DNA from: Ilyomonas sp.
Lineage (GTDB): Bacteria; Bacteroidota; Bacteroidia; Chitinophagales; Chitinophagaceae
DNA: 64,000 nucleotides
Assembly: GCA_965214235.1 (NCBI GenBank)
Contig: CBDCBH010000002.1
Location: 838,320 to 902,319, forward strand
Direction of reading: 5' to 3'
This document shows, in pieces, positions 44,971 through 55,527 of the stretch. The notes beneath the pieces are model-generated. The model ran no database searches. It saw only the letters and a list, made by a program, of their open reading frames with translations, and was not told the DNA's origin. Numbering within the stretch: position 1 is the stretch's first letter; each line of letters starts with the position of its first letter. The position numbers were made by a program, and so were the translations under genes.

Positions 44971-45288
44971 TTCCGTTGCCAGCTATCTTTTGACAAGTCA
45001 AAAGAAGTGCTTTGCGGTTGGAGTTGATAAGGCTGACTGACAGCGTTTGTTTTTGTGCCTTTTTTGTTTTTGTAGCACTCGCAGTCTTGCTCAAGGTGAC
45101 ACAATAAAGCAGCAGGCAACAAAGGGCTTTGTGCCAGCACGGCTGACTCTTTGTAGTAGCTACTTCAGTTCTTTATTCAACTTCGGTTCGTGGTTCGACA
45201 GAACAATCTTGGGCATTTGTTTTTGTTTGTATCTTTCGTTCTTTAACCAGCTTTTAGTTCAGGCAGACGGATTTCATCCGCCGTGCCG
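44971..45288 (+). repeat. island repeat family 1, copy A (diverged)
   Basis: By-eye identity of roughly 70% to 47545-47880. It contains the 8+2+8 inverted repeat cttttgac-aa-gtcaaaag at 44987-45004 and abuts the IS1182 left end. Confidence 0.6.
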
Positions 45289-47089: not shown

Positions 47090-47350
47090 TTTGTTTGACA
47101 ATATGTTTTGTTTGACTTATGTTTTTTTTGCTTGTTGACAACTTATTTCTTTGACACAACTTAGTTGGTTTGACTTTATTTTTTGCTTCACTTTATTTTT
47201 TTGCTGCTTGACAACATATTTGCCCGACTTTTTTTGACAATGTTTTGCAAATTGACTTTGTGCTTTGCTCCTTGACTTTATGCTTTATCAGACTTATGTT
47301 TTGCGACCTGACAATGTGTTTTGTCTGACTTATATTTTGTACTTAGACAA
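47090..47350 (+). repeat. array of about 15 degenerate direct repeats centred on TTGAC(A/T), spaced about 18 bp apart
   Basis: (T/C/A)GAC cores occur at 47096, 47113, 47136, 47152, 47171, 47209, 47225, 47235, 47253, 47273, 47290, 47309, 47326 and 47345. The unit resembles TTGACAATGTGTTTTG. Confidence 0.7.
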
Positions 47351-47912
47351 AACTGCCTGCAACATAAGGTTTGGCAAAAAACTGGCTGACACTTTTTACA
47401 TCAACATCAGTAATGCTGTTTATCTTTTGCTCCGGCTTGACATTATAAAATGGGCTAAAAAATAAACAATGAACTGCTTATCTTTACTTGAGCAATAGTT
47501 CCGGCTGACGTTTTTCAAGTACCAGTTCTTCGCCAAGCCGGTGGACGTTACCTGCAAGCTTTTTGACAAGTCAAAGTTTGTCGTTTTTTTTGCTTCATTT
47601 TCAGGTTGACAAGTGCTGAGTAACAACGTTTGTTTTTACGCCTCTTTTGTTTTTGCATCACTCGCTGGCACGCTCATGTTGACAAACTAAAGCAGCAGGT
47701 AACAAGTGGTTTTGTGTCAGCACGGCTGACACAGCTCAACAGCTACTTCAGTTCTCTACTCATCTTCGGTTATCGGCCCGACTGAACGCTGTTGGTCAGC
47801 AGGAATTGTTTGTTTCTTTTGTTCTAGTTTCGGCTTTTGGTTACAGGCTGACCGAACTTTCATCGCGCCGCCACAAAGCCTCGCAGCGTTAGCAGCTATG
47901 TTAAGTAACACT
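47348..47912 (+). repeat. island repeat family 1, copy B (longest copy; MITE-like?)
   Basis: Its core 47531-47704 is about 90% identical by eye to 55073-55247. It contains the inverted repeat tttgac-aa-gtcaaa at 47562-47575, and its left end shares AAAACTGCCTGCAACAT with 53609-53625. Confidence 0.7.
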
Positions 47913-52965: not shown

Positions 52966-53595
52966 ATGGAAGAAAAACAAAGGTTCATTTTTGACGCATT
53001 GATGTCACTACCATCATATAAAAACTTTGAGTTTTTAAGTGAAGGTGAAAAGATTACCCTTCGCAGCTTCAAACAAGGGTTTTTAAAGACTGAAGAAACA
53101 GTAATTAATATTTCCAAGCCGCAATCTAAGCCATCGGATTTAGCATTGGTGAGAGCAAAATTTAAGGATGAGGTTGTTGTAGAAAAGATTGATAAGAACT
53201 TTTTATACGTTATGCTTCGAGAAGTATCAGTAATCAATCAGGAGCATTTCGTTCAAATTATGATTGAGCTGAATGCTGAAAATAATCGAGTAATAAATTT
53301 TTCTGACTTTGCAATACATGCTTTCTTCACTCACATCTACAAATCCTTTCCAAATCTTAAAAACTCACTCAAAATTCAATCTTTAGGAGATAAAAACGAG
53401 GAGTTGGCTTTCATAATTGAGAATGGTTTCCAAGATGAAAATTTTCAAAGATTTTTTGAGTATGGCATTAAGTTGAAAGCTGCTTTGAGAACTTGCAGGA
53501 ATAATAAAATTGAAAAACTTGTATTTTTTGACACCCCAAATAACACTTATCAGGACTTCACGATAGAAGAACTTGAAGAAATGACTACACGATAA
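52966..53595 (+). CDS. hypothetical protein, no recognisable domain
   Basis: A 209-aa ORF with an ATG start, 19 nt after the exonuclease stop on the same strand. It has the AT-rich island composition. Confidence 0.6.
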   Translation: MEEKQRFIFDALMSLPSYKNFEFLSEGEKITLRSFKQGFLKTEETVINISKPQSKPSDLALVRAKFKDEVVVEKIDKNFLYVMLREVSVINQEHFVQIMIELNAENNRVINFSDFAIHAFFTHIYKSFPNLKNSLKIQSLGDKNEELAFIIENGFQDENFQRFFEYGIKLKAALRTCRNNKIEKLVFFDTPNNTYQDFTIEELEEMTTR

Positions 53596-53662
53596 ACCAT
53601 GAACAGTTAAAACTGCCTGCAACATGAACTGTGTAAAAAGCCAAGAAAAATGAATACAATTT

Positions 53663-54643
53663 TTAAGGTTTAGCTGAACAATAGTTAGGTTGGTACAGAG
53701 TATTGTTTTTAACGACGGCAAATACCTGTTTCAACACTTTGTTGCAAACTGCAATCAGAGCCAGCTTTCCACTCTTTCCTTTTTCGCGTAAGCGTTTATA
53801 CAAAGCTTTGCAGGCTATGTTATTGCGGATGGCATTCATGGCACACAGGTACAGCACATCCCGGATTTGTTTACCGCCCTGCCGGCATATTGTTGGTCGG
53901 CTGTTAATAGATGTTCCGCTGCTTTTTTCTACCGGGCTCAAGCCTGAAAAACTAATTAACTGCCGGTAGTTGCCGGTGTATTTAAAGCCTTGTGTATAGA
54001 CGATCAGCAGGGCGGTAGCCCGCTTGCCTATGCTCATAATGCTGCTGATGTTTTTTACCTGCTGTGGCTGCCATTGCACCAGTATTTCCTGTAGCTTTTT
54101 CTCTAACTTTTCTGTCTCGCCTTCAAACTGCGCTATCATTTTCTCAAGCGATTTTACTACGTCTTTGTTTTGTACGGGCAGCTTTTCGAGGCTGTGTACC
54201 TGGTTGGTAAATAGCTTGATCTGTTCGCTGTAGGTGCGTATGGCATTGTATAATTGCTTGCACTGAAAGTAAAGCGGGTGGGGCATTTCCCACAGTTCCG
54301 GCTGCTGATCAGCAGCATATTTACAGATCCATTTCGCATCCTTTTTATTATTTTTGTTTCGTTCCAGGTGCATCTGTATATAGCGCTTAATGGTAAGGGC
54401 GTTGACCACACTAATGGCACATTGTAAGTGGTGCAGAAAAAAAGCCAGATTCATATAATAGACACCTGTTGCCTCCATTACGAAGTGATATTGCAAACCC
54501 GTGTGCCGGATGATTTCGTCAAATCCTTTGCGGCTGTTCGGCACTTTGATGTAAAACAATTCGCCCAGGTTGTTCTGGTAACTGACGTCTAATGTGTTTT
54601 GTGATACATCGATGCCACAGCATAACTTTTTAGTGTTTGTCAT
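53663..54643 (-). CDS. IS110-family DEDD transposase/recombinase
   Basis: An N-terminal DEDD domain (CCGIDVSQ, FVMEATGVYY, NKKDAKW) and a C-terminal Transposase_20-like domain (SFSGLSPVEKSSGTS). Confidence 0.9.
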   Translation of the reverse strand: MTNTKKLCCGIDVSQNTLDVSYQNNLGELFYIKVPNSRKGFDEIIRHTGLQYHFVMEATGVYYMNLAFFLHHLQCAISVVNALTIKRYIQMHLERNKNNKKDAKWICKYAADQQPELWEMPHPLYFQCKQLYNAIRTYSEQIKLFTNQVHSLEKLPVQNKDVVKSLEKMIAQFEGETEKLEKKLQEILVQWQPQQVKNISSIMSIGKRATALLIVYTQGFKYTGNYRQLISFSGLSPVEKSSGTSINSRPTICRQGGKQIRDVLYLCAMNAIRNNIACKALYKRLREKGKSGKLALIAVCNKVLKQVFAVVKNNTLYQPNYCSAKP

Positions 54644-54907
54644 TTGCTTGTTTGTTTGGAGGTGAATGAATATTTTTAGGCTGTTATCACAAGAACAATC
54701 TTACGCGGTGCTTTCTATCCTAATGCAGGCTTACCGTTGGTGGGTAGCCTCGTGAACTGTTCAGCATCTGGTAAGAAAAAAGGTGGGGATGATCATGTTG
54801 TAAAGGCTTACAATGCCTATGCGGTTTTGCCATCTTACTCCACCTTTTGTTCCTTTGTGTTATTCTGTTGACCAAGCTAACTTATTGAAAAAATGTAAAC
54901 ATAGGAT
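54644..54907 (-). ncRNA. candidate IS110 bridge (guide) RNA region in the 5' non-coding end
   Basis: About 264 nt of non-coding sequence lie upstream of the recombinase inside the element. It contains near-copies of both element/flank junctions: tgaactgt at 54753-60 versus the junction at 53625-32, and atgcggttt at 54819-27 versus the junction at 54906-14. Confidence 0.35.
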
Positions 54908-55247
54908 GCGGTTTGGCATTATGGCGGGGCGACGAATCAACTTTCAGCATCAGTACATTTATTATCTTTTGTTCAAGCCGATATTTTGCTGTTAATCATT
55001 AGTTCTTATCTTCAACTTCAGTTTTTCAATCGGCTGCAGTTCCGGGCTGGACGTTATAAAATTTCCTGCCATCGCCAAGCCTCGCACCGTTACCTGCAAG
55101 CTTTTGACAAGTCAAAGTTTGTCGCTTTGTTTTTGCTTCATTTTCAGGTTGACAAGTGCTGAGTGGCAACGTTTGTTTTTGCGCCACTTTTGTTTTTGCA
55201 TCACTCGCTGGCTTGCTCATGCTGACCAACTAAAGCAGCAGGTAACA
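54908..55247 (+). repeat. island repeat family 1, copy C (interrupted by IS110, truncated at 55247)
   Basis: It is colinear with 47366-47704 through shared blocks: ggtttggca, catcagta, ttatcttttg, agttccgg, cgccaagcc, cgttacctgcaagc and tttgac-aa-gtcaaa (55103-55116). Confidence 0.7.
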
Positions 55248-55527
55248 TGATCTGTATAAAAAATACAACTCCAGGCATCAAAAGTGTTATAAAAACAAAC
55301 GGTGTTTCCACGTCAGCGTGTCAGTTAAATTCTTATCTTTCCTCCCTGTTCGCAAATAAACTGCTAAAAAAAAGTGTATTTATTTCATTACGTTTATCTG
55401 CACGGCCTGGCTGCTTTTGTTTCAAACCTATAACGGGTATGAGATAGTTATAAATGGTTTGATTACCTGAAACAAAGATTTTGCTGCGCCTACCAAAAAG
55501 GCAGAATTACCAATTAAAACATCTACT

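Follow-up and report, generated by a model that had tools for sequence, protein, structure and literature searches.

An IS110-group insertion sequence, very probably guided by a bridge RNA, in attC-like sites of integron-like cassette arrays in an Ilyomonas genome

The window analysed here is a stretch of 64,000 nucleotides from Ilyomonas sp. (Bacteroidota; Chitinophagaceae; GenBank assembly GCA_965214235.1, contig CBDCBH010000002.1, positions 838,320 to 902,319 of the forward strand). At positions 53626-54907 it carries, on the minus strand, an element that we are highly confident is an IS110-group insertion sequence (IS) with a bridge RNA of approximately 165 nt encoded in its left end, upstream of the recombinase gene. 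The element is 1,282 bp long including one copy of an AT core (body 53626-54905). Its recombinase gene (53663-54643, minus strand) encodes 326 amino acids with a RuvC-like DEDD domain and a Tnp domain as defined by Pfam, and is framed by 264 nt of noncoding sequence at the left end (54644-54907) and 37 nt at the right end (53626-53662). Flank comparison and a repeat model show that the element interrupts an attC-like site on the plus strand, of which the left arm, AAAACTGCCTGCAAC-AT with an R''-like box, lies at 53609-53625. The rest of the site lies at 54908-55097 (nhmmer match 54906-55084) and runs from GCGGTTTGGCA, containing the L''-like box, to CGCCAAGCC (L'), TCGCACC and GTTACCTGC (R').

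The boundaries were placed by comparing the flanks and the three identical copies of the element in the genome. On the minus strand the left-end junction reads ..GCCAAACCGC-AT-CCTATGTTTAC.., with the left target (LT) before the core, and the right-end junction reads ..TTTACACAGTTC-AT-GTTGCAGGCAG, with the right target (RT) after it. The AT core is present at both junctions (53624-53625 and 54906-54907). As the G that follows it is doubled too, giving a repeated ATG (53624-53626 and 54906-54908), the boundary is ambiguous by up to three bases. Apart from a short subterminal inverted repeat (ACA...TGT / TGTnTAnA) the element has no inverted repeats, long terminal ones being absent. When the flanks are joined the rebuilt site is CAACATGCGGTTTGGCA, that is ..CAAC-AT-GCGGTTTGGCA, and identical unoccupied sites are found at C1:76410 and C1:77300, where C1, like C2 and C3 below, is one of the four contigs of the genome searched (3.97 Mb, 91% complete). 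Both junctions and these empty sites share the core dinucleotide (CAAC-AT-GCGG). An earlier reading of this DNA, made from the sequence only, had set the insertion at 53626-54907, about 1.28 kb, with about 264 nt of noncoding leader upstream of the recombinase; the leader is confirmed and the insertion is correct within the repeated ATG. That reading had also taken 47348-47376 as the empty site. An uninterrupted paralogous site does lie there, beginning one base later (47349-47376) within an attC-like site at 47334-47543 of the plus strand, but it is not an exact empty site, since it reads ..CAACAT-AA-GGTTTGG against ..CAACAT-GC-GGTTTGG in the rebuilt target. Its 13-mer, AAACCTTATGTTG, has two mismatches to the programmed 13-mer, AAACCGCATGTTG, and the exact empty sites are those on C1.

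In addition to the copy in the window (A), the genome contains copy B at C3:100646-101968 and copy C at C1:72560-73870. The three are 100% identical and in the same orientation, and all are inserted at position 46/47 of the repeat model, in three different arrays of the repeat. Their right-target flanks differ from one another; the flanks of B and C, to which the sequence-only reading had pointed as a check, are related to those of A. On the left-end side, copies A and C are also identical over 143 nt of flank (window 54908-55049 and the sequence just below C1:72560). This identity breaks sharply at ..GGGCTG|GAC, inside the attC-like site, and the C1 site is therefore a chimera in which the left arm mismatches the right arm. 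The pattern of the flanking sequences suggests some conversion or recombination between copies or arrays.

The minus-strand leader, folded as RNA, has a basal stem (GGAACA/UGUUCU) that encloses two stem-loops, both with an internal loop. The first is the target-binding and the second the donor-binding stem-loop. The core of this structure (54856-54690, 167 nt) has a folding energy of -44.2 kcal/mol, its minimum free energy structure is the same as its centroid, and only one of 200 shuffled sequences was as stable (z -2.75). By analogy with known bridge RNAs, 54856-54690 would be transcribed as such. Relatives of the element were collected from 300 genomes of the same family and from one public contig set, the latter giving just one close relative; their recombinases are 89, 70, 68, 67, 65, 52 and 50% identical to that of the window. 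All of them carry the same leader, including those of a second lineage discussed below. Thirty-two base pairs are supported both by an alignment of 10 leaders and by a model-based alignment of 16. In these alignments the stem cells are paired in 89-90% of cases, as against 31-54% when the partners are slid by one to three columns (10 to 16 relatives), and 12-16 of the stem pairs have changed on both sides; none of 500 column shuffles reached the observed values. A pairing proposed by RNAalifold between GUUC of the left donor guide and GGAU of the right donor guide was excluded from the model, as both are invariant guides and the pairing shows no evidence of covariation. The covariance model that we built (R1) scores the core at 161 bits. 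It finds five matches in this genome, each of them directly upstream of an IS110 recombinase gene, and matches in six of 150 other genomes of the family.

Four segments on the arms of the two internal loops correspond to the four half-sites at the junctions. In the first loop the 5' arm holds the left target guide (LTG, CAAAACCGCAU, 54819-54829, minus strand), which is in the same sense as the left target CCAAACCGC-AT and matches it together with the core over 9 nt (AAACCGCAU). The right target guide (RTG, 54793-54803, minus strand) lies on the 3' arm, with UUACAACAU at 54803-54795, and is complementary to AT-GTTG(T/C)A. The match here (CAACAU / ACAACAU) has a length of 6 nt in copies A and B; in copy C, whose flank is TACAACAT, it extends to 8 nt. 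The GA after this guide is the complement of the TC that closes the left donor, and may be an extension like the "handshake guide" of IS621 (PMC11208158). In the second loop the left donor guide (LDG, 54751-54762, minus strand, with ACAGUUCA at 54760-54753) is on the 5' arm and in the same sense as the right end, ACAGTTC-A(T), over 8 nt, and the right donor guide (RDG, 54713-54726, minus strand, with UAGGAU at 54722-54717) is on the 3' arm and complementary to AT-CCTA at the left end over 6 nt. Neither the right donor guide nor the end CCTATGTTTAC varies among the relatives. In IS621 the pairing includes the core and extends over 8-9 nt of the bottom strand for the 5' arms and over 4-7 nt of the top strand for the 3' arms (PMC11208160). 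The order of the guides along the RNA, LTG, RTG, LDG and RDG, and the arms that carry them are as in IS621 (PMC11208160), and the match lengths of 9, 6-8, 8 and 6 nt fit the published ranges.

To measure how often such matches arise by chance, the leader was shuffled 20,000 times with its dinucleotides preserved. Of these shuffles, 251 reached the 9-mer AAACCGCAT, 1,070 the 8-mer ACAGTTCA and 11,539 the right-donor 6-mer, and only two reached all four junction probes jointly. The sequence-only reading had picked out three segments of the leader, all of which are located where it placed them. Two of these, the near-copies of the junctions, are the guides LTG and LDG and are beyond chance, RTG and RDG having been overlooked. 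The third, tgcaggc (54724-54730), which it had paired with the flank gcctgca, is not a guide. It forms part of the donor loop's inner stem, relatives with different flanks retain GCCUGCA, and the right-target 7-mer GCCTGCA was reached in 2,832 of the shuffles (14%), which is not significant. The fit to a bridge RNA that this reading had proposed is upheld by the fold, with its target and donor loops, and by stems and guides that covary in the relatives.

It is this structure and covariation, and not the string matches, that give the decisive support. The variable part of the left target and its guide change together, being CCGC/CCGC here, CCCC/CCCC at locus L017, CCT/CCT at L022, CCCAAT/CCCAAT at L021 and CCTC/CCTC in the second lineage, and the right target and its guide alternate between GTTGY/ACAAC and GTTAG/CUAAC among the relatives. 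On the donor side, the base beside the core is changed from A to G both in the right end and in the LDG of a distant subfamily. Summed over 10 elements, the in-register identities between cognate guides and flanks come to 144, compared with a mean of 126.9 (sd 4.3) when the pairs are permuted, and eight of 100,000 permutations reached 144. In the distant subfamily the two junctions also disagree at the first core base: the target side has T, A or C, followed by T, the donor side has GT, and two of the four guides follow each version.

The target is itself a repeated element, as had been supposed from the sequence alone. Using nhmmer, 90 copies of an attC-like repeat of approximately 215 nt were found in the genome, in one-way arrays. 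The copies in the window are at 45098-45276, 47334-47543, 47676-47858 and 54906-55084. The arrays are at C1:64-82 kb, at C2:516-522, 700-728 and 883-893 kb (the last being that of the window) and at C3:94-114, 1461-1479, 1539-1543, 1707-1710 and 2020-2027 kb. The repeat has inverted ends, such as GCAGGTAAC-n4-GGTTTTGTG ... CACAAAGCC-n6-GTTACCTGC, which the consensus fold joins through a long-range stem. The cells of this stem are paired in 91% of cases, as against 74% after the partners have been permuted between copies, and many compensatory changes are seen. In all three copies the element has the R''-like box (..CAAC) on one side and the L''-like box (GGTTTGGCA) on the other. The repeat model also abuts the left end of six of ten relatives, where it starts at model positions 47-95 (exactly 47 in three). 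Intact copies of the programmed 13-mer (AAACCGC-AT-GTTG) number two in the genome, both within the repeat family, where 0.11 would be expected in 3.97 Mb. Among the approximately 90 repeat sites the exact 13-mer is found at five, of which three are occupied and two free, and no copy that differs from it is occupied. As only sites with the exact 13-mer are occupied and the variable spacer bases covary with the guide, it follows that the RNA discriminates within the repeat family.

The arrays resemble those of integrons in having co-oriented cassettes and hairpin-forming sites with inverted R and L boxes, though the sites, at approximately 215 nt, are longer than classical attC. The C1 array adjoins the 3' end of a co-oriented tyrosine recombinase of 367 amino acids (L012:1204-2307), whose best family is the Xer type. 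Against the integron integrase family TIGR02249 it scores 165 bits, where the cut-off is 265, in a split match that lacks profile positions 180-240, and no protein in this genome reaches that cut-off. A classical attC of an IntI integron was considered as the target and ruled out, because the TIGR02249 cut-off is not reached and the IntI insertion is missing from the array recombinase. Of 150 genomes of the family, 58 have homologues of the array recombinase. At 16 of 30 recombinase loci from other genera the repeat is found again on the same strand, no more than 1.5 kb downstream; most of the other loci end at a contig edge. The target thus appears to be an attC-like site within an integron-like cassette array that is served by a non-IntI recombinase.

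Some further features of the arrays were noted. Two of them adjoin the 3' end of a co-oriented Xer-like tyrosine recombinase without the IntI insertion. Many of the homologues of the array recombinase (L069-L092) are located a few hundred bases from a contig end. Such positions fit repeat arrays breaking short-read assemblies, and the arrays are likely to be under-counted in draft genomes. A unit of 341 nt with no open reading frame recurs many times, in tandem beside the recombinase (C1:79600-81960, L012:376-1087) and in the window at 47531-47704 and 55098-55247. It consists of the attC-like site and a leader of approximately 130 nt with a palindrome, TTTGACAAGTCAAA, and a terminator-like hairpin. 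Weak Rfam matches to "L20 leader" (55103-55201) and CRISPR-DR30 were rejected as spurious, the first of these falling in the 130-nt leader of the unit.

The recombinase belongs clearly to this type of element. Both of its Pfam domains, PF01548 (E 8e-20) and PF02371 (E 1e-14), are above the Pfam cut-offs, and residues 9-316 align over the full length with the transposases of solved structure ISCro4 (9t56, E 4e-31) and IS621 (8wt6, E 4e-29). The catalytic Ser-Gly is kept, with S242-G243 aligning with S241-G242 of IS621, and D12, E57 and D102 are present. At the level of sequence, every feature of an IS110 bridge-RNA element that can be tested here is found, with the exception of the residue at the third position of the DEDD motif, which is Asn.

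This residue and the following observations weigh against the RNA-guided reading. N99 (codon AAT, 54349-54347, minus strand) stands where Asp is found in 24 of 24 homologues with identities of 26-89%, and mutation of the equivalent D102 in IS621 abolished recombination (PMC11208158). As for the RNA, only the 167-nt core is unusually stable, the whole 264-nt leader being of ordinary stability (z -0.69), and a scan of 53300-55300 against Rfam 15 with E values up to 10 found no bridge-RNA family, so that membership rests on model R1. The matches of 6-7 nt on the 3' arms are, taken singly, no better than chance. Finally, the targets of the relatives all belong to one repeat class, and the covariation of guide and flank comes from few variable positions in related sequences, whose independence is somewhat overstated in the permutation test.

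With Asn in place of the conserved Asp, whether the recombinase is active at present is uncertain, and because N99 is common to all three identical copies, either Asn is tolerated or the copies have spread by other means. The element may accordingly be a bridge-RNA insertion sequence by descent that is no longer autonomous, the change from Asp to Asn having crippled its recombinase. The copies would then owe their spread to a wild-type copy acting in trans, since lost or unassembled, to gene conversion or to recombination at the level of cassettes. The strict conservation of Asp and the loss of recombination in the IS621 mutant (PMC11208158) are what such an explanation would draw on, together with the 143-nt flank shared by A and C and the chimeric C1 site, which look like conversion or recombination rather than clean transposition; an assembly that is 91% complete also leaves room for a missing copy. 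Set against this, three copies with 100% identity over 1,282 bp, in three arrays and with three right-target flanks, are the usual signature of recent transposition, and the mutation must be older than all three. In IS621, moreover, D102 makes a hydrogen bond to G242 of the Ser loop and does not bind metal, and the only mutant tested was the replacement by Ala (PMC11208158); Asn might keep this role. On balance we consider loss of autonomy unlikely, though it is a serious alternative to transposition by the recombinase of the element itself.

A second alternative concerns how the target is chosen. The recombinase might mainly recognise the folded attC-like hairpin, the RNA fine-tuning the choice within that class of sites, so that sequence and structure are checked together. 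Every member of the clade, down to 44% protein identity and in several genera, occupies one and the same structural position in attC-like sites, a long-range stem of the site covaries, and a target stem-loop has been reported as a second specificity determinant for ISPpu10 (bioRxiv 10.64898/2026.03.19.712850). Against this, among approximately 90 copies of the repeat only those with the exact 13-mer are occupied (three of five exact sites), and the guide covaries with the variable spacer bases. A leading role for the hairpin seems doubtful to us, and it would add to the RNA-guided model rather than replace it.

That the matches are coincidental and the leader a plain 5' untranslated or promoter region with no guide function is highly improbable, for although 6-7-nt matches are common in shuffles, one of the three matches first noticed is due to chance and the fold energy of the whole leader is ordinary, the four probes occur together in almost no shuffle, the segments lie on the correct arms of covarying internal loops, and guide and flank change jointly across the relatives.

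Keeping to the RNA-guided reading, a route can be proposed with the chemistry taken from IS621. The element would excise as a circle in which the joined ends, ..ACAGTTC-AT-CCTATG.., are held by the second (donor) loop; the predicted circle junction is ..ACACAGTTC-AT-CCTATGTTTAC.. and the predicted excised site ..CAAC-AT-GCGGTTTGG... The first (target) loop would hold the 13-bp site AAACCGC-AT-GTTG, and a tetramer of the DEDD/Ser recombinase with the bridge RNA would exchange strands at the AT core. Circularisation might also create a promoter. Bacteroidota promoters have the consensus TTTG / TAnnTTTG. At the very start of the left end is a candidate -7 box, TATGTTTA (54896-54903, minus strand), which is conserved in all ten relatives, and the right end has a candidate -33 element, CTTGG (53641-53645, minus strand), with TTG where all relatives have TTTG. 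Once the ends are joined the two are approximately 20 nt apart. The candidate -33 element would face the -7 box only after circularisation, giving a junction promoter, and we infer that the joined motifs fit both the Bacteroidota consensus and the junction promoter of IS621.

A second IS110 lineage, whose recombinases are 44-52% identical to that of the element (loci L046, L047, L020 and L021), also occupies attC-like sites of this kind. In this genome it is represented by an intact gene at C2:696760-697710 with 48% identity (L046, C2:694761-699709) and by a pseudogene at C3:1540349 with 44% identity (L047, C3:1538350-1543295). We suggest tentatively, and with somewhat less than even confidence, that these elements form an IS110 clade (44-89% identity, in several Chitinophagaceae genera) that specialises in attC-like sites of the non-IntI, integron-like arrays of Bacteroidota. 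The target loops would read the variable spacer between the R-like and L-like boxes, such that each lineage picks a subset of cassettes and the guide drifts with the sites, and the element described here would be a naturally spreading Asn variant. If this is true, the spread of the N99 variant would show that an acidic residue is dispensable at the third DEDD position.

The element adds little to the mechanism, but it provides a clean natural case in which four guides as well as occupied and free sites can be read in one genome. It is an IS110-group element, with its guide RNA upstream, that lands in cassette recombination sites, a habit until now described for the IS1111-attC group. The landing pad lies in poorly described integron-like arrays of Bacteroidota, in whose sites the insertion sequence marks a precise and conserved position, and an integron-like system of this type would escape surveys based on IntI. 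A natural change from Asp to Asn at a residue of the catalytic motif, found nonetheless in three identical copies, also poses a simple question about the active site of IS110 recombinases.

Compared with known systems, the element is a further example of a mechanism known since 2024 and not a new kind. It has the same pair of domains as IS621, which has a 177-nt bridge RNA (Durrant et al, 2024, PMC11208160; Hiraizumi et al, 2024, PMC11208158), and as ISCro4 (PDB 9t56). As in IS621, the RNA is encoded in the left end upstream of the gene with the target loop first and the donor loop second, the 5' arms repeat the left halves in the same sense, over 9 and 8 nt, the 3' arms are complementary to the right halves, over 6-8 and 6 nt, a 3-bp subterminal inverted repeat (ACA...TGT) flanks the donor, and the target is a repeated palindromic element. 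The protein is distant from both, however: its local alignment with IS621 scores 105 bits and that with ISCro4 112 bits. The core is AT where that of IS621 is CT, the third DEDD residue is Asn, the host is a member of the Chitinophagaceae (Bacteroidota) with a putative junction promoter of the Bacteroidota type (TTTG / TAnnTTTG), and the target is an attC-like cassette site where IS621 uses a repetitive extragenic palindromic (REP) element. The IS1111-attC group (ISPa21, ISPst6 and ISKpn4, with their seekRNAs; Post and Hall, 2009; Siddiquee et al, 2024, PMC11187229) likewise consists of RNA-guided DEDD elements that insert in one orientation at one end of folded cassette recombination sites. 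In that group, however, the guide RNA is downstream of the gene and the subterminal inverted repeats are 11-13 bp, whereas the layout here is that of the IS110 group, and its targets are attC sites of classical IntI integrons where ours are in arrays beside non-IntI recombinases. Assignment to the IS1111 type, with a long right end carrying the seekRNA and subterminal inverted repeats of 7-17 bp, was ruled out, as the right end is 37 nt and the RNA is upstream of the gene. ISPpu10 and ISPpu9 of Pseudomonas putida (bioRxiv 10.64898/2026.03.19.712850; PMC12288879) are also IS110 elements that insert into one conserved intergenic repeat forming a stem-loop, but they differ in having a proteobacterial host and in using REP-type repeats rather than the sites of cassette arrays.

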